64,000 nt of DNA. Source: Minisyncoccota bacterium (GTDB taxonomy: Bacteria > Patescibacteriota > Minisyncoccia > Phycocordibacterales > UBA9973). The stretch covers positions 267,184 through 331,183 of the forward strand of contig JBBABB010000001.1 in NCBI GenBank assembly GCA_041657885.1, written 5' to 3'. Below the pieces are notes generated by a model. It searched no databases and had not been told where the DNA came from. It saw only the letters and a program-made list of their open reading frames with translations. Within the stretch, counting starts at the first letter, position 1. Every line of letters begins with the position of its first letter. Below, one piece after another: positions 3,370 to 60,603 of this stretch. The translations under genes were made by a program, and so were the position numbers.

Positions 3370-5076
3370 TTAGTGATATAAGTCAAAGTATTCTGGAGTA
3401 TAAACACTTATATAATCTATGACTTCGCTCATTACTCGAGTTGCATTACCTGATGCTGCTTTGGGACCACGCTCCATAACGAGGGCAAAGGCATATTTAG
3501 GATTATCATACGGGAAAAAACCTATTATCCAAGAGTTTGTATTTGTATTACCAAGTCCGACTTGTGCCGTACCAGACTTGGCAGCAACTTTTACATTTAC
3601 TAGATTAAGCGCTGTCGCAGTCCCCTCTGTTACTGCCATTCTCATACCCTCGTGTATAACATTTATATTATTGGCATCAACGGGAATAGTTATTTTTTGT
3701 GATTCAAAACTGCTATCTGCAAGAGTAATATGCGGAGTATAAATTGTTCCCATATTTGCAATTCCTGCTATTGCTTTTACCATTTGAATAGGAGTCACTT
3801 GAAAACCATACTGACCAATGGCAGTATTATAAGTATCACCAACTCGCCATATTTCCCCTTTAAATGTTTTTGTTTTCCATTCTGGAGTCGGGATTGTGCC
3901 GTCCTTTTCACCATTAAGATTAATCCCTGTCTTTTCTCCTATTCCAAATAATCTTGAATATTTATCAATATTTACTATACCTAAACCTTTTTGACTTTCA
4001 TATCCACCACCTATTTCATAAAAATATACGTCAGAAGAAATTGCAATCGCTTTTCTCATATCCACATAACCGAAAGTCCCGTGGTCCTTAAATACCGATT
4101 TTTTATCTGGAAAATAAGGATTAGGAATAGAAATTGACCCATTTGAGAAAATTACCTTTAATGGACTAATAATATTCTCAACTAACGCTCCATATCCCAA
4201 AAATGGTTTTATTATAGAACCTGGACTATACAATCCAGAAATAGTACGATTCAAAAATACTTTTCTTTTATCTGAAAAATATCCATTTATTGTTTTACTA
4301 TCACTGCCAAGAGATAAAACATTTCCATCGTATTCTGGAAAGCTGGTGATAGCGAGTAATTCACCAGTTTTTATATCCATAATTACTCCAGCTCCACCTT
4401 GGAAATTCACGTTTTGTGCCATCGACGATATTGAATCATACATTTTTTTTTGAATTCTGGAATCGATAGAAAGATTTATATTTTCCCCCGCTTTAGGTGG
4501 TGATATTATATTTTCTGATTGAATAACTCCATTAACATCTGTTTCTGTAATACGAACCCCATTGACTCCCGTGAGAATGTCATTATAAAAATTCTCTACC
4601 CCATCTTTACCTATAAAATTATCTTGCCAATAACGTCCAGATGAGTCTTTAGCTGGAGAGCTCACATAACCAAGAAGCAACCCAAATCCTGGGGATGAAT
4701 AATAAGATCTCTCGGGCGAAGATAATTTATTTATATCTTCCTTGTCCCATGTGTTCCAAGAAAGCAAAACTCCCTTACGATCATATATTAATCCCCTGTC
4801 AGAAAAAATAGGTTGCTTCTGGAGTGTATTATTTTCACTTTTTTTGAAATATGACCCACCTTTAATTATTTGGAGATTAAAAACTTGCCCAATGAATATA
4901 AATGATATCCCAAGAAAGAACAACCCGACCCAAAAGATAGAACGCTTTGATATTGCCTTCTCTAACCTGCCTTCAAACTGTTGTATATTAAAATTAGGTA
5001 AGTTTTTAGAATCAAGAAAAATTTCATCCGGATCAATATCTTTTTTTATTCGATTGTGATTAATGTGAAACCTCAT
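3370..5076 (-). CDS. Class B penicillin-binding protein (FtsI/PBP2-type transpeptidase)
   Basis: The 568 aa protein has an N-terminal TM anchor, a dimerisation domain and a transpeptidase domain with SXXK (SIIK), SXN (SSD) and KSGT (KSGTA) motifs. Confidence 0.85.
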   Translation of the reverse strand: MRFHINHNRIKKDIDPDEIFLDSKNLPNFNIQQFEGRLEKAISKRSIFWVGLFFLGISFIFIGQVFNLQIIKGGSYFKKSENNTLQKQPIFSDRGLIYDRKGVLLSWNTWDKEDINKLSSPERSYYSSPGFGLLLGYVSSPAKDSSGRYWQDNFIGKDGVENFYNDILTGVNGVRITETDVNGVIQSENIISPPKAGENINLSIDSRIQKKMYDSISSMAQNVNFQGGAGVIMDIKTGELLAITSFPEYDGNVLSLGSDSKTINGYFSDKRKVFLNRTISGLYSPGSIIKPFLGYGALVENIISPLKVIFSNGSISIPNPYFPDKKSVFKDHGTFGYVDMRKAIAISSDVYFYEIGGGYESQKGLGIVNIDKYSRLFGIGEKTGINLNGEKDGTIPTPEWKTKTFKGEIWRVGDTYNTAIGQYGFQVTPIQMVKAIAGIANMGTIYTPHITLADSSFESQKITIPVDANNINVIHEGMRMAVTEGTATALNLVNVKVAAKSGTAQVGLGNTNTNSWIIGFFPYDNPKYAFALVMERGPKAASGNATRVMSEVIDYISVYTPEYFDLYH

Positions 5077-6241: not shown

Positions 6242-7618
6242 TTAAATTTTTAATAAGTAATCCCCAACTTTTGAGGCTTCTCCTGCTCCCATTGTAATAA
6301 TAATGTCTTTATCATTCATATTTGGAAGTCCGACCTGCCTTGCCGTCAGGCAGGCTTCCAAATATTTTTCTACTTCCCTAAAGCCAAGAAAAGATTTTGC
6401 GTTATGTGTATTATTGTTTATTTCCTCTGCTAAAATTTCTGAACTTATCGTACCATCATCAATTTCACGAGCATAATAAATCGGTAATAATAAAACTTCG
6501 TCAGCATCGAAAAAACTTTTAGCGAAGTCCGGCAAAAGTAATTTTGTACGAGAAAATAAATGTGGTTGAAATACTACTGTTATTTTCCATCTGTCCCTCT
6601 TCGGATATAATTCGCGGAATCCTTCAAGCGTCGCTATTATTTCTGTTGGGTGGTGAGCATAATCATCGTAAAGAAGTGAACCTTGTGAGAGTTTTCCCCT
6701 AAACTCAAATCTTTTCCATGTTCCAGGAAATTCTCTCAAATATTTCTCGGAATCGGATTGAGAGACTCCGAGAACTGCGGCGGCGGCTACAGCCGCCACC
6801 GCATCCTTTTTGTTGTGTACTCCAGGAATTTTTAATTTCAAATCTGTATTAAAATAATCTTGCCAATCTACAACACGCGCATTTATGTCTTTGATTACAT
6901 CCGCAATATTTACATCGTTTGGATTACAAACTACATATCCATCACTTGGCACTTTCATCGCCATCTCATGGAATGCACTTTTTATATCTTCAATATCTTT
7001 ATAATAATCCAAATGGTCGCTATCAATATTCGTAATTACCAAAATCTTTGGATTTATATTTAAAAATGACCTTCTATACTCACAGGCCTCAACAACCAAA
7101 TACTTACTCTTTCCCGCAATAAAATTACTTTTGGTACCTATAAGTAAACTTCCCACAATAACAGTTGGATCATTACCATTATCACAAAGAATCTGTGCAA
7201 TCATTGCCGTAGTGGTTGTTTTACCGTGTGTTCCTGAAATCGCAATCGTATATTTATCACGACTTATAATATCAAGCATTTGCGGATATGAACGAACTTG
7301 GATTTCGGTTTCTTGCCCGTTTGCATTTTTATGCAAAATAGGGTGTTCTTTTATTTTTTTTGCAAGTTCTGGGTCATAAGTATCTATAGCAATTGTATAA
7401 ACTATTAAATCAGTATCTTTTGGAATATTCTCATATGATTGGCCAATTTTAATCGAAATCCCCAGCTTTTTAAGTTCCATCACAATTTCCCCTTCCTGCA
7501 TATCTTGCCCTGTCACATTCTTCCCTTCATGGAGCATCATTCTGGCCACCGCCGAAATCCCGATACCACCGATACCGATAAAGTGAACATTTTTAATTTT
7601 TGATAAATCTAGGTCCAT
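6242..7618 (-). CDS. murC: UDP-N-acetylmuramate--L-alanine ligase
   Basis: The 458 aa protein has a Mur ligase N-terminal Rossmann fold (GIGGIGISAVA) and the P-loop GTHGKTTTTAMIA. Confidence 0.85.
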   Translation of the reverse strand: MDLDLSKIKNVHFIGIGGIGISAVARMMLHEGKNVTGQDMQEGEIVMELKKLGISIKIGQSYENIPKDTDLIVYTIAIDTYDPELAKKIKEHPILHKNANGQETEIQVRSYPQMLDIISRDKYTIAISGTHGKTTTTAMIAQILCDNGNDPTVIVGSLLIGTKSNFIAGKSKYLVVEACEYRRSFLNINPKILVITNIDSDHLDYYKDIEDIKSAFHEMAMKVPSDGYVVCNPNDVNIADVIKDINARVVDWQDYFNTDLKLKIPGVHNKKDAVAAVAAAAVLGVSQSDSEKYLREFPGTWKRFEFRGKLSQGSLLYDDYAHHPTEIIATLEGFRELYPKRDRWKITVVFQPHLFSRTKLLLPDFAKSFFDADEVLLLPIYYAREIDDGTISSEILAEEINNNTHNAKSFLGFREVEKYLEACLTARQVGLPNMNDKDIIITMGAGEASKVGDYLLKI

Positions 7619-7619
7619 A

Positions 7620-8129
7620 TTATTTAAATAATTCTTCCAAATTTAATTTTCTAGGTTCTTTAATAACTAAAAACTTTTTATCTTTTATAGATTCTAATAT
7701 AGAAAATATTTTTGGTTTGCTATGATTATTCCAATTATACACCCATGAAAAAAATTTGATATCAAACTTGTTCTTAGATTCTATTGGTCGTCCATACCTT
7801 TTATCTAATCCTAGTTTAACTCTAATTAATCGTTTAATAATACGATACAACTGTAATCTTCTTGGAATATCAATAAAAATAATTAGATTTGCCCAATCCA
7901 CTCTTTGGGGTAAAGTGCTTGTATAATTTCCTTCTATAACACCAACATTTTCAGATAATAATTTTTTATTTATTTCTATTAATTCATTAATATCTTTCTT
8001 TTTCCAATTAAAATCTAAAAATAAATTATCTAAATGATATACTGGGTAACCTGTATATAAAGAAATTCTATTCGCTAAGGTAGATTTACCAGAGCCACTT
8101 CCTCCTAAAATTATGATTCTCTTATACAT
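7620..8129 (-). CDS. P-loop NTPase, adenylate-kinase-like (topology modulation/FlaR-like family)
   Basis: The 169 aa protein has the Walker A motif ILGGSGSGKSTLA at its N-terminus. Confidence 0.5.
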   Translation of the reverse strand: MYKRIIILGGSGSGKSTLANRISLYTGYPVYHLDNLFLDFNWKKKDINELIEINKKLLSENVGVIEGNYTSTLPQRVDWANLIIFIDIPRRLQLYRIIKRLIRVKLGLDKRYGRPIESKNKFDIKFFSWVYNWNNHSKPKIFSILESIKDKKFLVIKEPRKLNLEELFK

Positions 8130-9234: not shown

Positions 9235-10716
9235 TTATTTTACTTTCTTAACAATTTTCATGAATAAATCGTTGCGTTCATATTCGTTGTTAAACATTCC
9301 AAATGATGCAAAAGCAGGAGAGAAAAGAATTGTGTCACCTTTCTTTGCTAGTTTAATTGCTTTTTGAATTACGTCTTTCAAATCCTTCCCTATTTCATTC
9401 GTAATTGGTAATTTGTAATTCTTAATTAATTTTTCTGTTCCACTTCCTTCCAGAAAAATTACCGCTTTACAATATTTATTTATAACTTTTACAAAATCAC
9501 CAAGCGGAAGATTTTTGTCTGAACCCCCACAAATTAAAACAATTTTCTTTCCCCCTAGGCCTTGCCTAGGGGACACCAATGCTTCTATCCCCGCTATTGT
9601 CGCATCGGGGGTTGTAGCATTGTTATCATTGTAAATTTTTATTCCCTTATATATTTTTAGTAGTTGGAGACGTCCCTCTAATCCTTTAAATTTTTCTATA
9701 CTCTTTTTAATAGCTTCCATTGGCACGCCAAGCACTTGTGCGACGGCTACTGCACAAGCCATATTTTCTCGATGGTGGATTCCAGGGACATTGAATTTCC
9801 AACTTTCAACATCTTTTTTATCTATAACAATCAACTTTCCTTTTATTTCATTTTTATTTATTAACTTTTTCATTCCAGGACGGATAATAAGAATATCTCC
9901 CTTTTTTTGAAATTTAAAAATATTTGCCTTATCACTAAAATATCTCTCCATTGCTTTACTTGTAGTGAACTTAGTTGAACTATAATAATTCATATGGTCA
10001 GGCATAAATGTTGTAAAAACGGAAATATGAGGAGAAAGTTTCGCTTCGCCGAACCCTTGTAATTGCCAAGAATCTAATTCACAAACTAAAATATCACCAT
10101 CTTTTACTTTTTTAAGCAACGGTAATGTTGCAACACCACGAAGATTGCCACCTAAATATACATTTCTTTTTCCTCGTCCCGCCGTAGCCTTGGCGGAGGA
10201 GGATAAAATCTCATAAATCAAAGTTGTCGTCATCGATTTCCCTCTTGTCCCTGTTACTCCGATTATCATTACACCAGGTGCACATTTAGCAAAAAGAGAG
10301 ACGTCCATCTCAACGGGAATATTATTCTTTTTTGCCTCAGCAATATAGATGGAATCAAGAGGAACCCCTGCAGATTTTATAATCATATCTCTATCTTTAA
10401 AATTCTCAAGCCTATGTTCTCCTAAGACAAATTTTACTTTAGCTCCGTGATCGCGAAGCGATTTTACGGGGTTTTTTGAATTCTTATCCTTAATTCTTAA
10501 CCCGCCTGCTCCCGAACTATCGTGAGGGCGGGCAGGTTCGTAATTCTTAATTGCTTCTACTGAAGCTTTGAGTTGTTCTTTTGTCTTCAAGTCTGTGACT
10601 ATCAAATCTGCCCCGCATTCTGCCAAGAATTTGGTATATCCCAACCCACGTCCCAAAATCCCCAGTCCCATAACTGTAATTTTCTTCCCCTTAAAAAATT
10701 GTTTGTAATTTTTCAT
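9235..10716 (-). CDS. murD: UDP-N-acetylmuramoylalanine--D-glutamate ligase, carrying at least three in-frame GC-rich palindromic insertions
   Basis: The 493 aa protein has an N-terminal Rossmann fold (MGLGILGRGLG) and the Mur ligase P-loop GVTGTRGKSMTT. The segment ARPHDSSGAGGLRIKDKNSKNPVKSLRDHGAKV is atypical, and GC-rich repeats lie at 9551-9573, 10175-10202 and 10501-10535. Confidence 0.85.
   Translation of the reverse strand: MKNYKQFFKGKKITVMGLGILGRGLGYTKFLAECGADLIVTDLKTKEQLKASVEAIKNYEPARPHDSSGAGGLRIKDKNSKNPVKSLRDHGAKVKFVLGEHRLENFKDRDMIIKSAGVPLDSIYIAEAKKNNIPVEMDVSLFAKCAPGVMIIGVTGTRGKSMTTTLIYEILSSSAKATAGRGKRNVYLGGNLRGVATLPLLKKVKDGDILVCELDSWQLQGFGEAKLSPHISVFTTFMPDHMNYYSSTKFTTSKAMERYFSDKANIFKFQKKGDILIIRPGMKKLINKNEIKGKLIVIDKKDVESWKFNVPGIHHRENMACAVAVAQVLGVPMEAIKKSIEKFKGLEGRLQLLKIYKGIKIYNDNNATTPDATIAGIEALVSPRQGLGGKKIVLICGGSDKNLPLGDFVKVINKYCKAVIFLEGSGTEKLIKNYKLPITNEIGKDLKDVIQKAIKLAKKGDTILFSPAFASFGMFNNEYERNDLFMKIVKKVK
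9551..9573. repeat. Family B palindrome ccccctaggccttgcctagggga (in frame in murD; second copy 37527-37547 in miaA)
   Basis: It is the inverted repeat CCTAGGC/GCCTAGG flanked by C and G runs, and is identical apart from the central base in the two genes. Confidence 0.75.
10175..10202. repeat. Family C GC-rich repeat (CGCCGTAGCC-TTGG-CGGAGGCGG-like), in-frame copy in murD
   Basis: It reads cgtcccgccgtagccttggcggaggagg. Related copies are 20232-20259 (intergenic), 27369-27397 (leuS), and weaker variants at 37751-37776 and 14641-14665. Confidence 0.6.
10501..10535. repeat. Family A GC-rich palindrome (cccgcctgctcc-N-gggcgggcagg), in-frame copy in murD
   Basis: It reads cccgcctgctcccgaactatcgtgagggcgggcagg, a hairpin CCCGCC/GGCGGG. 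Other copies are at 40039-40069 (alr) and 42111-42140 (murB), and split arms lie at 19844-19854 and 19944-19953. Confidence 0.8.
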
Positions 10717-14576: not shown

Positions 14577-15770
14577 ATGAAAATTCTGGCGATTGAAACA
14601 TCGTGTGACGAAACAGGAATAAGTATATTGGAGGTGAAAAAACCTGCCTCGCGCCAAGGCGGGTCTGGTAAAAAAGATATTTTTAAAATTTTAGCCAATA
14701 ATATACATTCCCAAGTTGAAATTCACGCCCAATATGGCGGTGTTTTCCCTGCTCTGGCTAAAAGAGAACATATAAAGAATCTACCTATTCTTTTTGAAAA
14801 AACAATTAAACAAGCAAAAATAAAAATAGAACAAATTGATGCAATCGCTGTAACATATGGACCTGGTCTTGAACCAGCCCTTTGGACTGGAATAGTTTTT
14901 GCTAAGGAACTTTCAAAGAAATACAATATTCCAATCGTGAAAGTTAATCATATGGAGGGTCATATATTTTCTATATTTCCCAAAAAAAGAAAAACATTCA
15001 CAATTGATTCTGATAAAAAAATATTCCCAATGCTTTCACTTCTTGTTTCAGGTGGACACACTGAACTTATTTTAGTAAAAAATTGGCACAAATATAAAAA
15101 AATAGGGCAAACGCGAGATGATGCAGTTGGGGAAGCTTTTGATAAAGTAGCACGTATGCTTGGACTTCCCTATCCGGGAGGACCAGAGGTCTCAAAGCTG
15201 GCAGAAATAGAACGAGAAAAAATTCCCCTCTCGAGGGGTGGCTTGAAAAGTCGGGGTGGATGCATTCCACCTCCCCCTTCGGGTACTCCTCAAGAGGAGA
15301 ATCTGCAACTCCCACGTCCTATGATTTATTCAAAAGATTATGATTTCTCTTTTTCGGGATTAAAAACCGCAGTATTGTATCTAATAAGAGATTTAAAAAA
15401 AGAACATTCCGACATTCTTGAGAATGTCGGAATAAAACAAAAAATCGCAAAAGAATTTGAAGATGCGGTAGTTGAAACATTAGTATACAAAACAATAAAA
15501 GCAATTAAAGAATATAAAATAAAAACTCTTATTGTTGGTGGTGGGGTCTCGGCAAATAAATATTTACAGGAGATAATGAACAAAGAAGTAAAAAATCTAA
15601 ATTTTAGTAGTCGGACTACTAAAATTTTAACAAAAGTTCACTTCCCTTCTAAAAGTTTAACTGGAGATAATGCTCTTATGATTGCTATCGCTGGATATTT
15701 TCAATATAAAAATAAAAAAGGAGTAAAAAATTTAAATTCTATAAAAGCCAAAGGAAATTTATCTTTATGA
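14577..15770 (+). CDS. tsaD: tRNA N6-adenosine threonylcarbamoyltransferase TsaD (Kae1/Gcp family) with a roughly 30 aa in-frame GC-rich insertion
   Basis: MKILAIETSCDETGISIL... and the HMEGH metal site match TsaD. The segment IPLSRGGLKSRGGCIPPPPSGTPQEENLQLPRP, encoded by the GC-rich palindromic DNA at 15225-15318, is not part of canonical TsaD. Confidence 0.85.
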   Translation: MKILAIETSCDETGISILEVKKPASRQGGSGKKDIFKILANNIHSQVEIHAQYGGVFPALAKREHIKNLPILFEKTIKQAKIKIEQIDAIAVTYGPGLEPALWTGIVFAKELSKKYNIPIVKVNHMEGHIFSIFPKKRKTFTIDSDKKIFPMLSLLVSGGHTELILVKNWHKYKKIGQTRDDAVGEAFDKVARMLGLPYPGGPEVSKLAEIEREKIPLSRGGLKSRGGCIPPPPSGTPQEENLQLPRPMIYSKDYDFSFSGLKTAVLYLIRDLKKEHSDILENVGIKQKIAKEFEDAVVETLVYKTIKAIKEYKIKTLIVGGGVSANKYLQEIMNKEVKNLNFSSRTTKILTKVHFPSKSLTGDNALMIAIAGYFQYKNKKGVKNLNSIKAKGNLSL

Positions 15771-19356: not shown

Positions 19357-19365
19357 AATTTATTG

Positions 19366-19438
19366 TGCTTGGAGGCAGATTTGCACTGCCGACCCTTCCC
19401 TCTTCAGGGGAATGCTCTACTAACTGAGCTATCCAAGC
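19366..19438 (-). tRNA. tRNA-Phe (anticodon GAA)
   Basis: The minus-strand read GCTTGGATAGCTCAGTTAGTAGAGCATTCCCCTGAAGAGGGAAGGGTCGGCAGTGCAAATCTGCCTCCAAGCA folds as a cloverleaf with a 7-bp acceptor stem and anticodon loop CTGAAGA. No CCA is encoded. Confidence 0.75.
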
Positions 19439-19743: not shown

Positions 19744-19792
19744 TAATTATACTTTATCATATTTAAATGGAAAATAAAAGGTGCTAAAAAAG

Positions 19793-19973
19793 TGCCCTCG
19801 GCCAGAGTCGGACTGACATTAGACCCTTAGGACGGGCCGGTTCCCCGCCTGCCTAAGCCTGTGCCCCCGACACGAATCGAACGTACATCTATCCCTTAGG
19901 ACGGGACTGTTCTATCCATTGAACTACGGGGGCATAGGCACTGGCGGGCAGGTATCCGTTGAACTACGAGGGC
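19793..19973 (-). tRNA. Second tRNA-Arg(CCT)-like gene, interrupted in its D-loop by a 109-nt insertion that contains the complete tRNA-Arg above. The 5' piece is 19953-19973 and the 3' piece is 19793-19843.
   Basis: The 5' piece GCCCTCGTAGTTCAACGGATA joined to the 3' piece GAACCGGCCCGTCCTAAGGGTCTAATGTCAGTCCGACTCTGGCCGAGGGCA forms a full 72-nt cloverleaf (acceptor GCCCTCG/CGAGGGC). The insert is bounded by CCCCGCCTGCC...GGCGGGCAGG palindrome arms of repeat family A. Confidence 0.4.
19862..19933 (-). tRNA. tRNA-Arg (anticodon CCT), complete and embedded within a larger interrupted tRNA-like gene
   Basis: The minus-strand read GCCCCCGTAGTTCAATGGATAGAACAGTCCCGTCCTAAGGGATAGATGTACGTTCGATTCGTGTCGGGGGCA has a perfect 7-bp acceptor stem, a D-arm GTTC/GAAC, anticodon loop GTCCTAA and T-loop TTCGATT. 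Confidence 0.6.
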
Positions 19974-20220: not shown

Positions 20221-20392
20221 AATTTTTCTTTGGCTCGCCGTAGCGGAAGCGGAGGCGGCTATTATTAATTAATAAAGGATTTTCATTGTAACATAAAAAT
20301 AAAAATAAAAACAATTGTGCGAGTAGCGAGAATCGGACTCGCGTTTTTTGCTTGGGAAGCAAACATATTACCACTATATGATACTCGCATTT

Positions 20393-20918: not shown

Positions 20919-22808
20919 CTAATTGTTACTACCACGTATCATTTTTAAAAACACATCATGGGATATGTTTATTTTTGCGTTTGATTGCATTCTTTTCTTA
21001 CCCCTTTTTTGTTTCTCAAGCAACTTTTTCTTTCTACTCACATCCCCTCCACCCACAACTTTACTTCTGTGCATAAGAACATCCTTTCTGAAAGCAGACA
21101 CTGATTCTGATGATATAATTCGCCCTAATGCCTTCCCTTGAATTTTAAAAGCAAATTGCTGTCTTGGAATAATATCTTTTAATTTTTCAACTTGGGCTTT
21201 CGCTTCATCTGTCACTTTTCTTCGTGATACCACTCGACAAAATGCCACCATTGGTTCATCAGCGACAACGATATCAAGCCTAACAACATCAGCTTCTCTG
21301 TACTCACCTATTTCATACGAAATAGAAGAATACCCCGAAGTGATGCTTTTCATATCATCAAAAAAATTACGCATGAGTTCTCGTAATGGCATTTCTAAAT
21401 CAATCGAGGACCTGTTGTCTCCAAAATTATCAGTTCCTTTAACTATGGCTTCGTGGTCATAGAAGAATGGCATAAGAGAACTTATATAGGTTGATGGGGT
21501 GATAATTTTTACATTGACCCACGGCTCAAAAACTTTGACGATATTTCCATCATCAGGGAAAAGATGAGGTGAGTAAATAATTTCTTCTTTTCCATTACGA
21601 AGTAATACTTTGTAAGTAATAGAAGGCATTGTTACTATTAATTGTAAATTAAATTCACGACTCAACCTTTCTGTAATTATTTCTAAATGAAGCATCCCCA
21701 AAAAACCACAGCGATATCCTCTCCCAAGTGAACCTGAATTTTCTTCTTCATATGAAAAAGATGAATCTGATAGTCGTAGTCGCCCCAGTGCTTGTCTGAG
21801 ATTGGGAAAATCATCCTGACTTTCTGGGTACACAGAGGCCCAAACTACTGGTTTAGGATTTTTATACCCCGGTAAAGCAAGCATCGGCTTTTTAAGAAAA
21901 GTAATAGTATCTCCAACTGATGCAATTCCTGGTTTTTTAATACCTGTCACAATATAACCAATTTCTCCACTACTTAAAAATTCACGTGGTTGTTCTTCGG
22001 GAGAAAATGTCCCAACTTCAAGTGAAATAAATTTTTCGGCAGAAACTGCAAACAAAAGTGATTCTCCTTTTTTAAATCCTCCATTAACCACACGTACATA
22101 AACTATAACTCCTCTATGATTATCATATTTGAAATCAAAAACTAAAGCTCGCCCTGTGTTTGATGATAATGCTAAATTTTCTCCAATATGAGGACAAGGA
22201 ATCTTTTTTATTATTTCTTCAAGTAACATTGCCACACCCTCACCCGTTTTTCCCGAAACAAGTAAAATAGTGTCTGGGTCGATGTCTAAAAGTAGCGCCA
22301 CTTCCATTTTTATTTCTTCAACTCGAGCCAGTGATGAATCAATCTTGGAAAGTACTGGTATAATCACAAGCCCAGAATCACGCGCCATTTGTAAGGTAGT
22401 GAGTGTTTGAGCTTGCACGCCCTGAGTCGCGTCCACGAGCAAAATAGAGCCTTCTACGGCCTTAAGAGCGCGAGAAACTTCATAAGAGAAGTCAATATGC
22501 CCAGGCGTATCTATCAAATTCAAAATATAATTCTCACCCCCTCCATGCCTCCCCCAAGAGGAGAGGTTTTGAATTTCCCCTTCCCCTTTGGGGAGGGGTT
22601 GGGGTGAGGTGTACTCCATTCTAACGGGCTGCATTTTTATAGTAATACCACGTTCTCTTTCCAATTCCATTGAATCTAAAACTTGATCTTTCATTTTACG
22701 TTTTTCTATCGTGCCAGTTATTTCTATCATTCGGTCAGCCAAAGTACTCTTGCCATGGTCAATGTGGGCAATAATTGAAAAATTTCTGATATTCTTAATA
22801 TCTGTCAT
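20919..22808 (-). CDS. lepA: Elongation factor 4 (LepA) with an in-frame MITE-like insertion of about 26 aa in the GTPase domain
   Basis: FSIIAHIDHGKSTLADR, NLIDTPGH and the LepA C-terminal domain match EF4. The insertion SPQPLPKGEGEIQNLSSWGRHGGGEN is encoded by the GC-rich element at 22534-22612. Confidence 0.9.
   Translation of the reverse strand: MTDIKNIRNFSIIAHIDHGKSTLADRMIEITGTIEKRKMKDQVLDSMELERERGITIKMQPVRMEYTSPQPLPKGEGEIQNLSSWGRHGGGENYILNLIDTPGHIDFSYEVSRALKAVEGSILLVDATQGVQAQTLTTLQMARDSGLVIIPVLSKIDSSLARVEEIKMEVALLLDIDPDTILLVSGKTGEGVAMLLEEIIKKIPCPHIGENLALSSNTGRALVFDFKYDNHRGVIVYVRVVNGGFKKGESLLFAVSAEKFISLEVGTFSPEEQPREFLSSGEIGYIVTGIKKPGIASVGDTITFLKKPMLALPGYKNPKPVVWASVYPESQDDFPNLRQALGRLRLSDSSFSYEEENSGSLGRGYRCGFLGMLHLEIITERLSREFNLQLIVTMPSITYKVLLRNGKEEIIYSPHLFPDDGNIVKVFEPWVNVKIITPSTYISSLMPFFYDHEAIVKGTDNFGDNRSSIDLEMPLRELMRNFFDDMKSITSGYSSISYEIGEYREADVVRLDIVVADEPMVAFCRVVSRRKVTDEAKAQVEKLKDIIPRQQFAFKIQGKALGRIISSESVSAFRKDVLMHRSKVVGGGDVSRKKKLLEKQKRGKKRMQSNAKINISHDVFLKMIRGSNN
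22534..22612 (-). mobile_element. Solo MITE-like GC-rich element (family F) inserted in frame in lepA
   Basis: It reads ctcacccccctccatgcctcccccaagaggagaggttttgaatttccccttcccctttggggaggggttggggtgag, with terminal inverted repeats CTCACCCC/GGGGTGAG. It is related to the leuS copies. Confidence 0.55.
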
Positions 22809-37005: not shown

Positions 37006-37935
37006 ATGAATAAAATCATTGTTATACTCGGCCAAACCTCTACTGGAAAGAGTGATTTTGCAGTAGAAGTAGCAAAAAATATAAATGGCGAAATAATTTC
37101 AGCAGATTCAAGACAAGTTTATAAAGGTATGAATTTAGGAACTGGTAAAATTACAAAAAAAGAAATGTGGGGTATACCGCATTATTTACTTGATATCACT
37201 TCCCCCTCACGAGTTTTTTCCGTTAGTGATTTCCAAAAATTGGCAAACAAAAAAATAAAAGAAATTTTAGAAAAAGGTAAAACTCCCATAATTTGTGGTG
37301 GTACAGGATTTTATATTGATTCCATCATAAATAGAACAATTTTCCCTGAAGTTCCACCAAATAAAAAACTCCGAGAAATTCTCGAGAGAAAAACCACAGA
37401 AAAACTTTTGGAAATATTAAAAAAAATAGATAAAAATCGCGCCCAAAATATTGACCAAAAAAATAGAATTCGCCTGATTCGTGCAATTGAAATAGTAAAA
37501 ACTCTCGGCAAGGTCCCAAGTCTTTCCCCTAGGCCGTGCCTAGGGGAAGATAAATATTTAAAAATTGGACTCACTATGCCACCTGAAGTTTTGAAAGAAA
37601 GAATCAAGACTCGTTTACTCATACGCATTAAAAAAGGTATGATAAAAGAAGTTGAAAATTTACACAATCAAGGCGTGTCTTGGAAACGAATGAATGCTCT
37701 TGGGCTTGAATATCGATACGTTAGTAATTATTTAAAAGATAGCAAAACCATGCCTCCGCTAAAGCTTCGGCAGGCGAAGAAAGAAATGATTGAAAAATTA
37801 AATACCGAGATTTGGCATTACGCTAAACGTCAAAAGACATGGTTTAAAAGAGATTTTAACACAATTTGGATAGACCCAAGAAAAAAGAGTGAGAAAAATA
37901 AAGCTCTAAAAGAGATAAAGAGATTTTTAAAATAG
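37006..37935 (+). CDS. miaA: tRNA dimethylallyltransferase MiaA (contains two in-frame GC-rich palindromes)
   Basis: The P-loop ILGQTSTGKSDFAVEVAK and the IPT-family motif SADSRQVYKGMNLGTGKI match MiaA. In-frame repeats lie at 37527-37547 (SPRPCLGE) and about 37751-37776. Confidence 0.8.
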   Translation: MNKIIVILGQTSTGKSDFAVEVAKNINGEIISADSRQVYKGMNLGTGKITKKEMWGIPHYLLDITSPSRVFSVSDFQKLANKKIKEILEKGKTPIICGGTGFYIDSIINRTIFPEVPPNKKLREILERKTTEKLLEILKKIDKNRAQNIDQKNRIRLIRAIEIVKTLGKVPSLSPRPCLGEDKYLKIGLTMPPEVLKERIKTRLLIRIKKGMIKEVENLHNQGVSWKRMNALGLEYRYVSNYLKDSKTMPPLKLRQAKKEMIEKLNTEIWHYAKRQKTWFKRDFNTIWIDPRKKSEKNKALKEIKRFLK

Positions 37936-39935: not shown

Positions 39936-41099
39936 TTATTTAATAACTCTTGGCAAAAGAGCACTTATCCTTGTTGTTGCTTCATAATTTATCGTTCCTG
40001 ACTCCTTAGCAATTTGTTCAGCAGTAATTTCATTTTTACCCCGCCTGCTCCCTCGTGAGGGCGGGCAGGCCTGTTTTCCTAAAATTACGACTTCATCCTC
40101 TGGCAACACATCTTTAATATGAGAAATATCAACTACAATCATATTCATAGCAACTCTCCCCAAAATTTTTGCTCTCTTACCTTTTACTAAAACTTCCCCA
40201 GTATTTGAAAGCAGACGTGGAATACCATCAGCATAACCCTGTGGAATTACTGCTATCTTGGTCGTTTTCTTTGTTATATATGTAAGCCCATAACCGATTG
40301 GATGATTCGCGGGGAGAACTTTAATCTGAGCTACGTGTGTCACCCATTTCAAAACTGGTTTCAAAATTATTTTCTTTTTATTTAAATATTCTAAATGTTC
40401 ACTTGGCCACATTCCATAAAGCCCGATACCAAGTCGAACAATATTGTGTAAGCTATTTCCTTTTTCATAAACTAGAATTCCAGAAGTTGCTGAAATGTGG
40501 GTTTTAATATTTTCAAAACTATTTTTTCTAAAAATTTCTACACATTTATGATACATATCTATTTGTTTCTGTGCGTAGGTGAAATTCATGGTGTCTTCAA
40601 TATTTGCAAAATGAGAATAAATTCCATCGAGTTCTATATTCTTCAACTTTTTGAGTTCAACAATAAAATTATCAATCTGGCTTGGCATTATTCCTTCTCT
40701 ACCAAGACAAGAATCAATAGCAACATGTACTTTGACTTTCATTTTTAAACTCCCAGCAATAAAATTTATTTTCAATAAATGAATCAAATCAAAAGCAGAT
40801 ATTATCGCTTTTGATTTTATGGCTCTTTTTATACCATCTCCATTCAAATAACCAAATACCAAAACGGGTTTATTTGTAACCTTTCCAACTCTTTCAAATT
40901 CTTCAATACTATTTACTTGGAAATAATCTGTATAAGGAGCAATAATTTTCGTCACCTCAACATCCCCATGCCCGTAAGCATTTGCTTTTATAACAGAAGC
41001 AATCTTTGTACCGTTTTTCAGTAATCCTCGAAACTGCTTGATATTATGTATCAAGTTTTCTTTTGAAATCTCTATATATGAAAGTGGTAAATTTTGCAT
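39936..41099 (-). CDS. alr: Alanine racemase with an in-frame family A palindrome insertion. Its start is revised to the internal Met because the longer ORF overlaps tRNA-Leu.
   Basis: ASVIKANAYGHGDVEV contains the PLP-lysine motif and the fold is Alr-like. QACPPSRGSRRGKNEI is encoded by ccccgcctgctccctcgtgagggcgggcagg at 40039-40069. The track ORF 39936-41177 would overlap the tRNA at 41102-41183. Confidence 0.75.
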   Translation of the reverse strand: MQNLPLSYIEISKENLIHNIKQFRGLLKNGTKIASVIKANAYGHGDVEVTKIIAPYTDYFQVNSIEEFERVGKVTNKPVLVFGYLNGDGIKRAIKSKAIISAFDLIHLLKINFIAGSLKMKVKVHVAIDSCLGREGIMPSQIDNFIVELKKLKNIELDGIYSHFANIEDTMNFTYAQKQIDMYHKCVEIFRKNSFENIKTHISATSGILVYEKGNSLHNIVRLGIGLYGMWPSEHLEYLNKKKIILKPVLKWVTHVAQIKVLPANHPIGYGLTYITKKTTKIAVIPQGYADGIPRLLSNTGEVLVKGKRAKILGRVAMNMIVVDISHIKDVLPEDEVVILGKQACPPSRGSRRGKNEITAEQIAKESGTINYEATTRISALLPRVIK

Positions 41100-41101
41100 T
41101 G

Positions 41102-41183
41102 TGCCGGAGGAGAGAATCGAACTCTCACCCCTTACGAGACACGATTTTGAGTCGTGCGCGTCTACCAATTCCGCCACTCCGGC
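41102..41183 (-). tRNA. tRNA-Leu (anticodon CAA), type II with a long variable arm
   Basis: The minus-strand read GCCGGAGTGGCGGAATTGGTAGACGCGCACGACTCAAAATCGTGTCTCGTAAGGGGTGAGAGTTCGATTCTCTCCTCCGGCA has anticodon loop CTCAAAA and T-loop TTCGATT. Confidence 0.8.
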
Positions 41184-41220: not shown

Positions 41221-42384
41221 TTATATTATCTCCGGTTCTTGCTCTAGTGTTATCCCAAATTTTTGCTCAACTATTTTTATTATTTCATTTCTAGCATTTA
41301 TAAGATCTTCTTTTGTAGCATTTCCGTTGTTTACCAAGACAAGGGCATTCTTGTCATAGACAGAAACATTACCAAATGACTTCCCTTTTAATCCTGCATT
41401 TTCAATGAGCCAACCAGCGGGAATTTTTACTAGGTCTTGCCTAGTCGTTTCCAGTGGAAAAAATTTAGCATTTGGGAAATCTGCTTTAATTTTATCGGCT
41501 ACACTATTTGAAACAATAGGATTCTTGAAAAATGAACCGACATTTGGAATTTCTTTTGGGTTTGGTAATTTTTCTTTACGAATTTCAATAATTGCTTCGC
41601 GAATTTGTTTTAAATTAGGATTCTCTATTTTGTGTTCTTCGAAATATTTTGAGACGCCAGGATATCCTAATGCTGGAGAAAGGTTTTTTTCTCCTCCTTG
41701 TTGAGGAGGAGTGCCCTTTGGGGCGAGGTGGTGACTAATTAATTCTAAATCACCACCCCCTACCCCCTCCTCCAAAAGGAGGGGAGGAACTTTATTAAGT
41801 CTATATGTTACAGCGGTTATTATGTATTTCCCTTTATCTTCATTTTTGAAAATACTATCACGGTACCCAAATTTACAATCTTTATTTGAAATAGTTTTAA
41901 TTTTATTTTCTTTGATATCAAAAACCTCCACTTCCAAAATGGTATCTTTAACTTCTACTCCATAAGCCCCGACATTTTGGACTGGCGTTGCTCCAACTGT
42001 TCCAGGAATTGCCGAAAGTGCCTCTAATCCTTGCAGATTCATTTCAACAGTTTTCTCTACAATTTTGTCCCAAATCTCGCCAGCTCCAACTTTTATATCT
42101 GCATATTTTTCCGTTTCGTTCCCGCCTGCTCCCTTGTGAGGGCGGGCAGGTATTATTTCAAAACCTTTAATTTCTATTTTTATAGCAAACACATCAATAA
42201 TTCCATCCGAAAATACAATATTTGAACCCCCGCCTAATATAAAAATTGGGGTATTTTTTTCTCTTGCCATTAAATAAACATTTCCTAGCTCATCTTTTTT
42301 ATCAATTTTTACAAAATAGCGAAATTGCCCTCCTATATGTAGTGATGAATAATCCCGGATATCTACGTATTCTTGTATTTTCAT
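41221..42384 (-). CDS. murB: UDP-N-acetylenolpyruvoylglucosamine reductase MurB with two in-frame GC-rich palindromic insertions
   Basis: It has an FAD-binding domain (ILGGGSNIVF) and a MurB C-terminal domain. Inserts occur at ARPHKGAGGNETEK (family A, 42111-42140) and VPPLLLEEGVGGGDLELISHHLAPKGTPPQQGGEK (41690-41790). Confidence 0.8.
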   Translation of the reverse strand: MKIQEYVDIRDYSSLHIGGQFRYFVKIDKKDELGNVYLMAREKNTPIFILGGGSNIVFSDGIIDVFAIKIEIKGFEIIPARPHKGAGGNETEKYADIKVGAGEIWDKIVEKTVEMNLQGLEALSAIPGTVGATPVQNVGAYGVEVKDTILEVEVFDIKENKIKTISNKDCKFGYRDSIFKNEDKGKYIITAVTYRLNKVPPLLLEEGVGGGDLELISHHLAPKGTPPQQGGEKNLSPALGYPGVSKYFEEHKIENPNLKQIREAIIEIRKEKLPNPKEIPNVGSFFKNPIVSNSVADKIKADFPNAKFFPLETTRQDLVKIPAGWLIENAGLKGKSFGNVSVYDKNALVLVNNGNATKEDLINARNEIIKIVEQKFGITLEQEPEII

Positions 42385-54751: not shown

Positions 54752-56065
54752 ATGGAGAAGGAAGAAAAGAAAGAACCATTATCACAAGAAGGAGACCTGC
54801 CCGAAATGCACAAGCAGGCGGGAAATTATATTAAAAAGCTTGGCCCAGGAATTATTACTGGAGCAGCCGATGATGACCCCGCTGGAATTGCTACCTATTC
54901 TCAAGCTGGTGCTCAATATGGAACAGGTCTAACTTGGCTTGCTGCTTGGACATATCCCTTTGTAGCTACCGTTCAAGAAATGTGCGCTCGTATTGCTCTC
55001 GTCACCGGACGAGGTTTGGCCGCTAACATAAAACATACCTATTCAAGAGAAATACTTTACGTTTGTACAATTCTTTTATTTTTTGCTAACACATTAAATA
55101 TTGGTGCTGATTTAGGGGCCATGGCAAAAGCAGTCCAGCTACTAGCTCCCGGGGCTTCATTTATTTTTTTAGTTGTGTTTATTGGTATCGTTGGATTATT
55201 TTTAGAAATATTAATTCCCTATAGAAGATATACAAAATATCTCAAATGGTTAGTTATCGCCGTTTTTGCATATATTGCCACTGGATTAATTATCAATATG
55301 GATTGGTCTGTGTTGCTACGAGATGGACTTATTCCACAAATTACATTTTCTAAAACTCAAATTCTTCTCATCACCGGAATATTGGGAACTACCATTTCTC
55401 CATATTTATTTTTCTGGCAAACTTCACAAGAAATAGAAGAGGAAATTTCCGAAGGCAAGACGACTGTTCGCTCACGCAAAGGAACTACCCACGCCGAAAT
55501 TAAAGAAATGCGAGTTGATATTTGGGCTGGAATGTTTTTGTCTAATCTCGTCATGTTCTTTATTATTGCTGTCTGCGCTAATACTCTTTTTGTCAATGGA
55601 ATTACAAACATAAGTACCGCCGCCGATGCTGCTCGTGCACTTCGTCCTCTTGCTGGACAATGGGCATCGTTACTTTTTGCCGTAGGAATTATTGGAACTG
55701 GATTGTTGGCTATTCCAGTACTGGCGGGTTCCGCTGCTTACGCAATTTCTGAAAGTTTTGGATGGAGAGAAGGATTATACCGAAAATTTAAAACAGCTCA
55801 TGCATTTTATGGAGTCATCGCTGTTTCAATTATCATCGGTATTTTAATTAATTTTATTGGCATTGACCCGATTAAAGCGCTCATTTATTCGGCCATTGTA
55901 AACGGAGTTGTTGCTCCAGTAATTCTGATATTCATAGTTAAAATAAGTAGTAGTAAAAAAATAATGGGTGAATTTAAAAATTCCCTGATAATAAAAATAT
56001 TAGGATGGACAGCAACCATATTTATGGGCATTGCCGCAGTTGCTACAATTATTTCCTTGTTCTAA
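54752..56065 (+). CDS. mntH: NRAMP-family divalent metal (Mn2+/Fe2+) transporter
   Basis: The 437 aa protein has about 11 TM helices and an NRAMP signature near the N-terminus (GPGIITGAADDDPAGIATYSQAGAQYG). Confidence 0.7.
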   Translation: MEKEEKKEPLSQEGDLPEMHKQAGNYIKKLGPGIITGAADDDPAGIATYSQAGAQYGTGLTWLAAWTYPFVATVQEMCARIALVTGRGLAANIKHTYSREILYVCTILLFFANTLNIGADLGAMAKAVQLLAPGASFIFLVVFIGIVGLFLEILIPYRRYTKYLKWLVIAVFAYIATGLIINMDWSVLLRDGLIPQITFSKTQILLITGILGTTISPYLFFWQTSQEIEEEISEGKTTVRSRKGTTHAEIKEMRVDIWAGMFLSNLVMFFIIAVCANTLFVNGITNISTAADAARALRPLAGQWASLLFAVGIIGTGLLAIPVLAGSAAYAISESFGWREGLYRKFKTAHAFYGVIAVSIIIGILINFIGIDPIKALIYSAIVNGVVAPVILIFIVKISSSKKIMGEFKNSLIIKILGWTATIFMGIAAVATIISLF

Positions 56066-58774: not shown

Positions 58775-59374
58775 TTATTTTTTCCAGATAATATGTCCAT
58801 TAATACTATGCTTTTCATAAGTTTCTAGGATATCGGTACAAAACTTTTCTAATTCCCTATTATTTTCACTTTTTGCTAATTCATATAAACGAATGAACAT
58901 TCTCTTGCCAGTTTCGGTTTGTTTTAAATTTTTCTTAATAAAATTATGTTGTGAGCATAAAATTTGTCCATTTTCAATTGTTGCTTCACCTCCAAGATCT
59001 TTGGGTTTTATATGATCAACATGTAAATCAATACCGTCTTTTTTACCTCTGCCACAAATTACACATTTATATCCATCTCTTTTCAGAATTATCACTTTTT
59101 GAGCAACAGTAAAATCTTCCAATTCTCTTTTGTATGCTTTATCGGGATCATATTTATAAATCCCTTTTGCAATTTTTATTAAAAAACCACTTTGAGATAA
59201 ATGACGAATAGCTCTGTCGGGGTCACGAAAAACATTGCCTGTTCTTTTCAGATAAGTTGATACCACCCAATCAACAACTTCTGGGTGTTTTATATCTCTA
59301 TTTGGATTTTTCTTAAAAAACTCAATAATAAGGTTTTTTTGAATATTATTATTTTTCTTATTGTTTTTTTTCAT
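58775..59374 (-). CDS. HNH endonuclease (candidate restriction endonuclease partner of the adjacent methyltransferase)
   Basis: The 199 aa protein has an HNH/zinc-finger core DGYKCVICGRGKKDGIDLHVDHIKPKDLGGEATIENGQILCSQHN. The N-terminal winged-helix-like domain is K-rich. Confidence 0.65.
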   Translation of the reverse strand: MKKNNKKNNNIQKNLIIEFFKKNPNRDIKHPEVVDWVVSTYLKRTGNVFRDPDRAIRHLSQSGFLIKIAKGIYKYDPDKAYKRELEDFTVAQKVIILKRDGYKCVICGRGKKDGIDLHVDHIKPKDLGGEATIENGQILCSQHNFIKKNLKQTETGKRMFIRLYELAKSENNRELEKFCTDILETYEKHSINGHIIWKK

Positions 59375-59378
59375 AAAA

Positions 59379-60342: not shown

Positions 60343-60603
60343 TTACCAACTCTTATACGCATCTTTGCGATGGTGGATTCTAAGGATTAAAATAACGAGT
60401 TCTTTTTTTCTTATTTCATATATAATCCGAAAAGGCCAGGCTCGCATAGAATATTGATTTGGTAATTCACCACTCAATTTCTTCCCAGAAAAAGGATACT
60501 TGAGAATTGCTTCAAGAATTACACGAGCTTTTATACGGTCTGCATCTTCTAAATTAGCGAGTCCTTTTTTTGCTCTTGGTTTTAGAACGAGTATAAACGC
60601 CAT
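60343..60603 (-). CDS. RelE/ParE-family type II toxin
   Basis: The 86 aa protein has WPFRIIYEIRKKELVILILRIHHRKDAYK, which matches the RelE/ParE C-terminal pattern. Confidence 0.6.
   Translation of the reverse strand: MAFILVLKPRAKKGLANLEDADRIKARVILEAILKYPFSGKKLSGELPNQYSMRAWPFRIIYEIRKKELVILILRIHHRKDAYKSW

Follow-up and report, generated by a model that had tools for sequence, protein, structure and literature searches.

How did a 36-nt GC-rich palindrome come to lie in frame inside murD, an essential cell-wall gene in an AT-rich stretch of DNA, and is it a part of that gene or a copy of something that moves? The gene lies in a 64,000-nt stretch of a Minisyncoccota genome (GenBank assembly GCA_041657885.1, contig JBBABB010000001.1, positions 267,184 to 331,183), the whole of which we call the window, and a first-pass annotation made from the letters alone had proposed that the same palindromic element, termed family A, recurs in murD, murB and alr. 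Our answer, to which we give a probability of about 0.68, is that the murD element (10501-10536) belongs, as one of its copies, to a family of 30-39-bp GC-rich imperfect palindromes that is widespread as an insertion in Patescibacteria, has no transposase of its own and is moved in trans.

The hairpin in murD, alr and murB and its empty sites

The window has three copies of the motif CCCGCCTGCTCCC-loop-GAGGGCGGGCAGG, 36 nt long in murD and 30 nt long in alr and murB (Table 1), where all coordinates and lengths count the trailing CAGG. The search pattern CCCGCCTGCTCCC-N(2-14)-GAGGGCGGG found these three copies and none in 100 dinucleotide-preserving shuffles, confirming that the element is recurrent, and a search of the window that allowed up to three mismatches per arm found just the same three perfect-arm copies, no degenerate ones, and none in 20 shuffles. 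The murD copy ends at 10536 and not at 10535 as first annotated, so that it measures 36 nt rather than 35. The GC contrast is as sharp as was claimed (72% in the element, a mean of ~33% in the window), and the copies are predicted to fold into hairpins (RNA, -17.5 and -18.5 kcal/mol; DNA, -11.8 and -9.5 kcal/mol), the 36-mer with a z-score of -2.0 to -3.2. The host open-reading frames (ORFs) match NCBIfam equivalog models (MurD TIGR01087, 1.3e-80; Alr TIGR00492, 2.9e-84; MurB NF000755, 7e-103), and the peptides read from the inserts are those originally given (PARPHDSSGAGG, PARPHKGAGG and ACPPSRGSRRG). The alr copy had been placed on the other strand and in another frame; the second part stands, yet the three genes are all on the minus strand and their three elements share one orientation, so the alr copy differs by reading frame only. 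As listed, the alr ORF runs upstream through a tRNA-Leu(CAA) at 41101-41183 with the artefact translation VAELVDAHDSKSC..., the real start probably being the ATG at 41099.

Comparison with orthologues that lack the insert fixes its boundaries. The 12-residue insert is absent from all 26 aligned MurD orthologues (69-78% identical to the window protein), several of which read EAIKNYE|LRIKN right at the insertion point, and one of them (P0066) has an ARPHDS-like insert at a different MurD site, a pattern that points to events that are recent or independent. At the DNA level the murD genes of L118 and L119 (L-numbers are labels of the loci fetched from our scans) run uninterrupted as ...GCAATTAAGAATTACGAA|TTAAGAATTAAGAAT..., whilst the window has 36 bp, CCTGCC...GGCGGG, at the bar; this junction, also written TTAAGAATTACGAA|TTAAGAATTAAG, is continuous in both loci, so the insert is exactly 36 bp. 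A pair of reciprocal sites was found in murB, where the window carries PARPHKGAGG at GFEII|NETEK, a site that is empty in the L111 orthologue, and L111 carries its own copy, PARPQEGAGG, at FDTK|DNTIK, which is empty in the window, each insert being 10 residues (30 bp). A third set of boundaries is given by a tRNA 5' fragment in L013, L021 and L082, which reads GGCCCTATCGTC|element|TAACGGTTA. No target-site duplication is present at these three independently defined sites (murD, murB and the tRNA 5' fragment). The sequence taattcttaa does flank the murD copy on both sides, with a 4-nt offset (ttcg), but its proposed role as a target-site duplication is ruled out, as the repeat already exists in the empty orthologous sites; because it is uninterrupted in L118 and L119 it is host sequence (codons IKNY and LRIK). 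Read from these alignments, the comparison shows that the element joins DNA as a precise insertion without target duplication.

The proteins appear to accommodate the inserts in loops, which the first-pass annotation had proposed to check on structures. The MurB insert is a gap against the solved Pseudomonas aeruginosa structure 7orz and the Alr insert a gap against Clostridioides difficile 4luy, where it falls in the loop between 'VILFG' and 'EVTAERIA'. In the AlphaFold2 model of the window MurD, residues 61-91 have a predicted local distance difference test score (pLDDT) below 50 and no secondary structure (coil); this stretch contains the element and a second, unrelated mini-insert, and its flanks are ordinary (helix 50-56, strand 94-98). 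These three inserts are thus placed in loops, that of murD being modelled as disordered.

A family across Patescibacteria that respects frame

We surveyed one genome per GTDB species with an exact-arm scan, and the search beyond the window that the annotation had called for yielded at least 117 loci. Most are from Saccharibacteria, Paceibacterota/Nomurabacteria, Minisyncoccia and other Patescibacteria metagenome-assembled genomes (MAGs), and some are labelled Verrucomicrobiota, Lentisphaerae, Kiritimatiellia, Phycisphaerae, Omnitrophota or Neomarinimicrobiota. Matches in high-GC DNA that have an unforced CAGG tail are unlikely to be chance; a few matches that lack the tail (L042, L043, L058, L090, L091) probably are. 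An apparent spread to archaea was rejected, since the one archaeal match, the 'Pacearchaeota' contig L008, has a PheS of bacterial type (it passes the cut-off of TIGR00468 and fails the archaeal-type model) and is probably a mis-binned contig of the candidate phyla radiation (CPR). Mis-binning is also probable for two short low-GC contigs, L047 (assigned to Bacteroides) and L067 (assigned to Ignavibacteriaceae), because their flanks match Saccharibacteria loci. No match to the element was found in 2.9 million viral contigs, which rules out a viral vector as its carrier. The family is not confined to cell-wall genes, and occurs in many types of gene, in intergenic DNA and in tRNA genes.

Frame was counted at those of the GTDB loci that have at most 45% GC and adequate flanks, with CAGG included in the lengths. 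Copies are mainly 30, 33, 36 or 39 nt long, with a minority of 34, 35 and 40 nt. Those whose length is a multiple of three number 42 in long ORFs and 22 outside, against 2 and 8 for the remainder (Fisher's exact p = 0.012), and deletion of the latter restored a spanning ORF in 0 of 10 cases. Since 66% of the multiple-of-three copies are in ORFs, compared with 75% of random positions in the same loci, they are placed roughly as if inserted anywhere, and copies of other lengths look to have been purged from genes. This supports purifying selection that filters for frame, in keeping with the strong selection first proposed, and the counts show that in predicted genes only copies that are multiples of three and stop-free in the host frame persist. 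Splicing or ribosomal bypass would permit other lengths in genes, contrary to their exclusion here, and the deletions that restore no ORF speak against splicing or bypass of such copies.

Orientation and codon phase are also biased. The sense orientation (CCUGCC...GGCGGG in the mRNA) is found in 36 of the 42 in-ORF copies, and 30 of the 42 are read in the PARP..GAGG phase. The claim that the element always adds an ARPH...GAGG-like peptide therefore describes the dominant frame; copies in the opposite orientation and other readings (ACPPSR..GSRRG, DLPAL..REQAG, RLLP..EGGQ, PACSR..RAGR) occur as well. The PARP..GAGG frame is the most hydrophilic and the richest in glycine and proline, and the phase bias could equally reflect a phase-aware mechanism, or tolerance of, or selection on, the encoded peptide. 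RelE-type ribosome-dependent mRNA cleavage is one possible source of codon-phase-specific breaks.

The conserved part of the family is its two ends, CCTGCCCGC...GCAGGCGGG in gene sense, around a variable interior that holds from 4 to ~90 nt. Paired flush, the ends form C-G, C-G, U.G, G-C, C-G, C-G, C.A, G-C and C-G, and the fixed wobble at pair 3 and the fixed mismatch at pair 7 make the two strands distinguishable. For example, in the MAG DATKGV01 the arms are constant whilst the loops differ (GAACTATCGT, GAACTTTCGT, GAACCTTCGT, GAAACATCGT and GAACATTCGT). When 794 kb of loci were searched with mismatches allowed, perfect-arm copies numbered 100 and one-mismatch copies only 5, and there were several relatives that share no more than the outermost 9-10 nt (CCCGCCTGC...GCGGGCAGG) around differing interiors. 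Three orthologous sites are occupied in pairs of loci (PyrG in L016 and L065, RsmH in L023 and L067, DapF in L051 and L057), and there the arms match at all 26 nucleotides, the loops are different and the flanking 150 nt are just 61-73% identical. Such arm identity would result either from nucleotide-level conservation or from repeated insertion at the same site. The use of several frames and both orientations, the identical arms at shared sites and the excess of perfect over one-mismatch copies together favour a constraint that acts at the nucleotide level and not at the peptide level.

Searches for a known RNA or repeat class gave no match. With Rfam 15 only tRNAs reached the gathering score in the window and 17 loci, and nothing overlapped the element even at E <= 10; helix 8 of the signal recognition particle RNA, which the GGAGCAGGC motif had suggested, was dropped as no Rfam family matched the element. 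A clustered regularly interspaced short palindromic repeat (CRISPR) would fit the length of 36 nt and the tandem copies in L071, but these have no spacers and lie inside an ORF. The L071 array (7264-7522) consists of at least four head-to-tail 36-nt copies around a scaffold gap inside an ORF, encoding repeated PARPHDSSGAGG, so that the element can also amplify locally.

Members that carry a tRNA, and other features of the window

The same ends also enclose complete tRNA genes. One such cassette lies in the window (Table 1), where removal of exactly 109 nt joins the flanks into a sequence that ARAGORN calls as tRNA-Arg(cct), the insert following nucleotide 21. In L092 (Ca. Chisholmbacteria) the ends enclose a tRNA-Val(GAC) and lie at 37/38 of a second tRNA-Val(GAC)-like sequence, which is degenerate and is not called by ARAGORN. 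A metagenome scan with the pattern CCTGCCCG-N50-75-GTTCGA-N18-34-GCAGGCGGG returned at least 120 loci; the counts that follow are among the matches listed. A complete inner tRNA is present in 85 of 120 inserts, which make up essentially all of those on low-GC contigs, and may be of type Arg (five anticodons), Thr, Leu, Val, Gln, Gly, Ile, Asn, Pro, Glu or Ala, whilst the 35 inserts that have no tRNA are nearly all on contigs of at least 56% GC and look like chance matches. Deletion of the insert gave an outer tRNA across the junction in 52 of the 85, and in 47 of these 52 the inner and outer anticodons are the same. The five exceptions comprise two ARAGORN miscalls that arise from further inserts (L143, L159), one that is a single base off at the junction (L180), one degenerate case (L165) and one that is unclear (L149). 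The 52 junctions fall in the D-loop (positions 20-25) in 27 cases, the anticodon loop (34-36 counted, including 37/38) in 17 and the T-region (mostly 56/57) in 8. If remnants are counted, 78 of 87 cassettes are surrounded either by a cognate tRNA that is called or by flanks with significant similarity to their own tRNA. The cassettes measure ~100-125 bp.

The outer copies range from intact, through copies hit by further hairpins, to truncated ones, and judged from their sequences they seem to behave like relics. Two apparently functional window tRNAs whose position 55 is not U, tRNA-Phe at 19365-19438 (T-loop UGCAAAU) and tRNA-Gly at 20317-20388 (T-loop UCCGAUU), mean that T-loop features are unusable for judging the decay of interrupted tRNAs. 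One type of cassette may occupy several positions: Gln cassettes lie at 36/37 and 56/57, Arg-TCG cassettes in the anticodon loop and the D-loop, and Val-GAC cassettes in all three loops. Inner and outer tRNAs share a mean identity of 75%, against 71% across loci, so that the inner tRNA is usually not a local duplicate, and in-situ duplication as its origin is ruled out for most loci. The exception is L142 (3990-4190), whose two copies of tRNA-Thr(UGU), inner and outer, share 98.6% identity, the outer one being followed by a further right arm; in L238 (~4440-4680) the outer tRNA has degenerate left and right arms on its two sides. In both loci a cassette seems to have entered the tRNA that a previous cassette had brought, in the manner of a Russian doll.

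The arms of the cassettes extend to a leader-trailer stem of ~17 bp with compensatory changes, whose covariation (0.121) exceeds that of shuffles (0.082, with 0 of 500 reaching the observed value) and of the stem when slid (at most 0.063). Of 243 tRNAs in all the DNA that we fetched, 86 are flanked by family ends, all 86 in one orientation, and 149 have no such stem. Cassette arms that enclose no tRNA occur in L132 and L190 and link the long and short forms. Nested tRNAs are not restricted to family A ends, since tRNAs inside tRNA-like flanks are also found with different stems (L169 503-576, L180 11594-11666, L192 5899-5971, L223 6823-6894), examples of which are CCGCCCCGTTAGATAT...ATATCTAACGGGG and CCGCCCTGCACC...GGTGCAGGG.

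A further arrangement near tRNAs occurs in three CPR MAGs (L013 4680-5060, L082 620-1010, L021 ~7360-7720), where a 21-nt duplicate of a tRNA 5' end lies upstream of the intact tRNA, with a small GIY-YIG nuclease gene between the two in L013 and L082. A family A hairpin of 34-35 nt, opposite in orientation, splits the duplicate at 12/13. The arrangement looks like a mobile GIY-YIG cassette that integrated at about position 21 of the tRNA, and a link to the tRNA cassettes was set aside as a separate phenomenon because no outer 3' part of a tRNA follows.

Table 1. Family A members, their host genes and related hairpins in the 64-kb window
Feature	Position	Strand	Remarks
Family A hairpin, 36 nt, in murD	10501..10536	-	Gene sense CCTGCCCGCCCTCACGATAGTTCGGGAGCAGGCGGG; encodes PARPHDSSGAGG, MurD residues 62-73; empty sites in orthologues
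Family A hairpin, 30 nt, in alr	40040..40069	-	Other frame, reads (A)CPPSRGSRRG; gap against C. difficile Alr 4luy
Family A hairpin, 30 nt, in murB	42121..42150	-	Encodes PARPHKGAGG; gap against P. aeruginosa MurB 7orz
Decayed copy, 27 nt, CCTGCCCGAAATGCACAAGCAGGCGGG	54796..54822	+	N-terminal region of Nramp/MntH-type transporter; reads DLPEMHKQAG
Family member, 109 nt, ends CCTGCCCGCC...GGCAGGCGGG	19844..19952	-	Holds complete tRNA-Arg(CCU); in D-loop of another tRNA-Arg(CCU)
Inner, intact tRNA-Arg(CCU)	19861..19933	-	ARAGORN; Rfam tRNA, 58.3 bits
Outer tRNA-Arg(CCU), 5' part, nucleotides 1-21	19953..19973	-	Junction analysis
Outer tRNA-Arg(CCU), 3' part	19792..19843	-	Junction analysis
murD, host gene	9235..10716	-	493 aa, against ~445 aa in insert-free orthologues
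alr, host gene	39936..41099	-	Likely start ATG 41099; NCBIfam
murB, host gene	41221..42384	-	Also holds a second, longer GC-rich inverted-repeat insert, ~41705-41774
Short hairpin CCTGCCTTGCCGTCAGGCAGG in Mur ligase gene (6242-7618)	6334..6354		Similar ends; family membership uncertain
Short hairpin CCTGCCTCGCGCCAAGGCGGG in tsaD (14577-15770)	14643..14663		Related; same outer hexamers CCTGCC...GGCGGG

The decayed copy in the transporter gene (PF01566 Nramp, 5e-86) sits where L068 has a full copy of 36 nt (DLPALTTIREQAG), and all five window copies, including this plus-strand one and the tRNA-bearing one, lie in transcript sense. Family A is one among several GC-rich palindrome families in the coding DNA of the window. 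Other GC-rich mini-inserts lie in murD itself at ~9551-9574, 10171-10203 and 10455-10485, and MurD orthologues span 442-509 aa through such inserts, some common and some unique. Further short palindromes of other sequence families lie in coding DNA at 20231-20261, 22532-22606, 27374-27397, 37526-37549 and 41705-41774, and inverted repeats of 70-120 nt are found in LepA and MurB; examples of these other families are CCCCTAGGCC.TGCCTAGGGG, read as SPRQGLGG in MurD, and CGCCGTAGCC..GGCGG, read as SSSAKATAGRG.

The ORF for leucyl-tRNA synthetase (LeuRS, 27039-29849) carries in frame, at residues 269-366, a DUF559/REase_MTES_1575 domain of the Vsr-like endonuclease fold (E = 1.6e-33), placed between the catalytic and editing domains. 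No intein domain is among the Pfam matches of this ORF, and the domain may represent a nuclease gene that entered this essential gene in frame. The window also encodes two VirD4/TraG-like coupling-protein ATPases (45996-48173 and 53171-54700), one with a treble-clef zinc finger, an HNH endonuclease beside an N6/N4 DNA methylase (58775-60305), and a ParE/RelE-Phd toxin-antitoxin pair followed by RadC (60343-60925), none of which has an obvious link to the hairpins.

Proposed mobility, rival explanations and known systems

How would such an element move? On our reading the ends would serve a non-autonomous mobile element as its terminal inverted repeat, and an enzyme encoded elsewhere would recognise the folded single strand and cut at the base of the stem. 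The absent duplication, the imperfect hairpin and the orientation bias favour a single-stranded DNA route with HUH-type chemistry, resembling that of the insertion sequences IS200/IS605 or of repetitive extragenic palindromic (REP) sequences and their REP-associated tyrosine transposases (RAYTs). The main alternative, which we regard as serious, is an RNA route in which cleavage in exposed loops would be followed by ligation, reverse transcription and recombination, and this would fit the tRNA-loop positions and an orientation that follows the host gene. By either route, insertions that break a frame or a structure would then be removed by purifying selection, and in-gene copies would be translated as loops of 10-13 residues of Pro, Ala, Arg, Gly and Ser. 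The short in-frame hairpins may be the cargo-less and the tRNA cassettes the cargo-bearing forms of one system, in which a cassette that destroys a tRNA gene would survive because the replacement comes with it. The same-anticodon rule is most simply one of survival, only those cassettes that replace what they destroy being viable. A bolder version, to which we give somewhat less than an even chance, is that the ends CCTGCCCGC...GCAGGCGGG define a transposase-less mobile system whose full form is the ~110-bp tRNA cassette, of which the murD, murB and alr hairpins would be cargo-less derivatives, and that a cognate-directed step acts via homology or tRNA structure and accounts for the matching anticodons. 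The cassette would then enter a loop of a resident tRNA gene of the same anticodon, destroying and replacing it at once, as a 'cleave-and-rescue' or addiction-type selfish tRNA.

Several observations weigh against a family moved in trans. Pfam or NCBIfam scans of 59 window ORFs turned up no transposase, HUH/Y1 protein, reverse transcriptase or RtcB, and the 1.66 Mb of fetched loci did not yield a longer, autonomous element bounded by these ends; long-range end pairs there proved to be chance matches or separate copies, and a 157-nt case in L121 was merely a tRNA that begins with AGGCGGG. We infer mobility from presence and absence at orthologous sites and from the occupation of multiple sites, and translation of the inserts from the ORFs. 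The perfect conservation of the arms is partly a matter of ascertainment, since the scans required exact arms, and where real it could mean function rather than recency. Covariation within the short 36-nt form is weak, though uninformative as the search fixed the arms, and the insertion context shows a weak preference, TC| preceding ~55-65% of low-GC copies. The same-anticodon rule also covers isoacceptors that are probably dispensable, which a random hit followed by survival explains poorly, and so a cognate-directed step may exist.

Other explanations have to be set against a mobile family. A functional motif kept by selection or molecular drive, be it a protein-binding or DNA-uptake-type signal, an antisense terminator or a co-opted processing stem of tRNA leaders and trailers, would account for 26 of 26 identical arm nucleotides amid flanks of 61-73% identity, for GC-rich synonymous positions kept in genomes of ~33-40% GC, for perfect-arm copies that far outnumber decayed ones, for the T-run that often follows on the plus-orientation strand, and for cassette arms that pair, with compensatory changes, into a leader-trailer stem just below the acceptor stem of the tRNA. 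We nevertheless consider it unlikely: copy number is low (3-5 per 64 kb, as counted in the window), copies arrive as whole units rather than by point mutation, and sites are not conserved among close orthologues, whilst arm identity is inflated by the exact-arm searches, decayed copies exist (54796-54822, L050, L066), and the T-runs, absent at the three window copies, are expected from Lys-rich flanks. Selection for the PARPH..GAGG peptide as a module that spreads among proteins, for instance because it acts as a flexible linker or is a target of modification or recognition, is very improbable. The use of one frame in 30 of 42 in-ORF copies and the typically charged or hydrophilic flanks would suit it, but at least five frames and orientations are used to read this DNA, which is conserved at synonymous sites, lies in intergenic DNA and tRNA genes as well, and is modelled as disordered where inserted. 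We give next to no weight to a chimeric GC-rich segment or adapter, which the sharp GC contrast with the host DNA and the position of the L071 array beside a scaffold gap might evoke and which had been named as grounds for refutation, because independent MAGs from different projects are occupied at the same site (L051/L057, L016/L065, L023/L067), the ORF is always preserved when the length is a multiple of three, loops vary whilst arms are kept, and the tRNA-gene architecture is coherent across many samples.

An intron-like RNA element, in which the hairpin, with or without its tRNA, is removed by an endonuclease and a ligase or is bypassed by the ribosome and the outer tRNAs stay functional, deserves separate consideration. 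It would explain why the insertion sites in tRNAs are three exposed loops, including the canonical 37/38 (L092, L155, L158), why orientation to the transcript is fixed (86 of 86 in tRNA genes, 36 of 42 in ORFs), why 52 of 85 outer tRNAs among the matches listed still fold as tRNAs, and why several of them hold more than one insert, as multi-intron archaeal tRNAs do. It is improbable all the same. If copies were removed or bypassed, those in ORFs would need to be neither multiples of three nor stop-free, and deletion of the other lengths restores no gene. The bulge-helix-bulge of archaeal introns has two 3-nt bulges set a 4-bp helix apart at the exon-intron boundaries, staggered and partly formed by the exons; here, by inspection of junctions and folds, the two ends meet flush, or leave a 4-nt tail in an alternative register, with no such geometry, and the exon context changes from site to site. 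Truncation or internal deletion has affected many outer tRNAs (L120, L176, L192, L201, L229), the carried tRNA making the outer copy dispensable. We know of no splicing endonuclease in these bacteria.

A mobile GC-rich family has its closest parallels among palindromes of other bacteria. Rickettsia palindromic elements (RPEs) reportedly form eight families, RPE-1 to RPE-8, that are translated as extra surface segments and have no known transposase, as work by Ogata et al. in 2000 and Claverie & Ogata in 2003 is said to have found. Like family A they are palindromic and lie in frame, in fold-compatible positions, in essential protein-coding genes of a reduced, AT-rich bacterium, as well as in non-coding DNA and RNA genes. 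However, RPEs are ~100-150 bp long and belong to one genus, whilst family A measures 30-39 bp at ~72% GC in DNA of ~33% GC, spans many Patescibacteria lineages (with some MAGs labelled as the Planctomycetes-Verrucomicrobia-Chlamydiae group, Omnitrophota and Marinimicrobia), includes tRNA-carrying members and has exact boundaries demonstrated to lack duplication. It is length and lineage that set the two apart, and their sequences are probably unrelated.

REPs and their paired form, REPINs (REP doublets forming hairpins), are also non-autonomous, GC-rich imperfect palindromes of 20-40 nt with a stable hairpin and fixed mismatches that distinguish the strands, and, like the related single-strand 'peel and paste' elements of IS200/IS605, they share with family A an insertion without target duplication and an orientation bias. 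In the definition excerpted from PMC3733652, REPs are extragenic and bear a GTAG or CGTC tag at one end. In contrast, family A lies mostly in ORFs (42 of the 64 multiple-of-three low-GC copies, and in the window three copies plus the Nramp one), begins with CCTGCC or CCCGCC and ends as CCCGCC.../...GGCAGG, has no GTAG or CGTC tag but just a weak TC| flank, and has ends that pair together instead of forming separate left and right hairpins as in REPs and IS200. IS200/IS605 elements, moreover, go in 3' of a short specific target, and REPs typically flank the gene of their RAYT. No gene for a RAYT (Y1 HUH) or TnpA was found by Pfam or NCBIfam among the 59 ORFs scanned in the 64-kb window. Miniature inverted-repeat transposable elements derived from DDE transposons differ in that family A, though its ends are inverted, makes no target duplication. 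Family A thus resembles RPEs and REPs and belongs to neither.

The tRNA-bearing members have parallels of their own. In Thermoproteales, a 'tRNA intron transposition' is said to have been described by Fujishima et al. in 2010; such mobile archaeal introns likewise place related short sequences at non-canonical positions (D-, anticodon- and T-loops) of many tRNA genes, and in the split and permuted tRNAs of Nanoarchaeum and Cyanidioschyzon GC-rich complementary segments flank tRNA pieces. Unlike the archaeal introns, family A is bacterial, shows no bulge-helix-bulge on inspection, keeps to multiples of three in ORFs, carries a whole second tRNA and leaves an outer copy that decays. Fungal mitochondrial GC clusters and the byps of Magnusiomyces, whose translational bypassing was reportedly described by Lang et al. 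in 2014, are short GC-rich hairpins spread across AT-rich coding DNA as well, yet byps are not multiples of three and are skipped by the ribosome, whereas family A copies of such lengths are excluded from genes. Genomic islands and phage attachment sites that target tRNA genes also render their insertion harmless by supplying replacement tRNA sequence, but they span kilobases, encode an integrase, recombine at the gene's 3' part and leave one regenerated tRNA, whilst a family A cassette has ~110 bp and no enzyme gene, carries a whole tRNA and lies within a loop of the old gene, which decays afterwards.

Literature searches on the sequence, the peptide, CPR palindromes or miniature elements and nested tRNAs, whose coverage is incomplete, found no description of the family, and neither hairpins nor nesting is mentioned in a 2026 paper whose subject is the group I introns of tRNA genes in Patescibacteria. 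The cassettes of a tRNA within a tRNA that share the same ends may be new in kind. Patescibacteria genomes are among the smallest and most streamlined, and still this window has essential cell-wall, translation and tRNA genes that contain foreign GC-rich hairpins. If our reading is correct, this would be a second, independent and far more widespread case of Rickettsia-style selfish DNA inside protein-coding genes and a natural experiment on which protein loops tolerate insertions, and it would explain part of the length variation and 'low-complexity' segments of CPR proteins as well as tRNA genes that annotation tools miss or miscall. The tRNA genes nested in tRNA genes of the same anticodon would then point to a structure-specific DNA or RNA insertion activity on hairpin or tRNA loops, possibly of use as a tool, and the conserved, strand-asymmetric stem would serve as bait for finding the mobilising enzyme.

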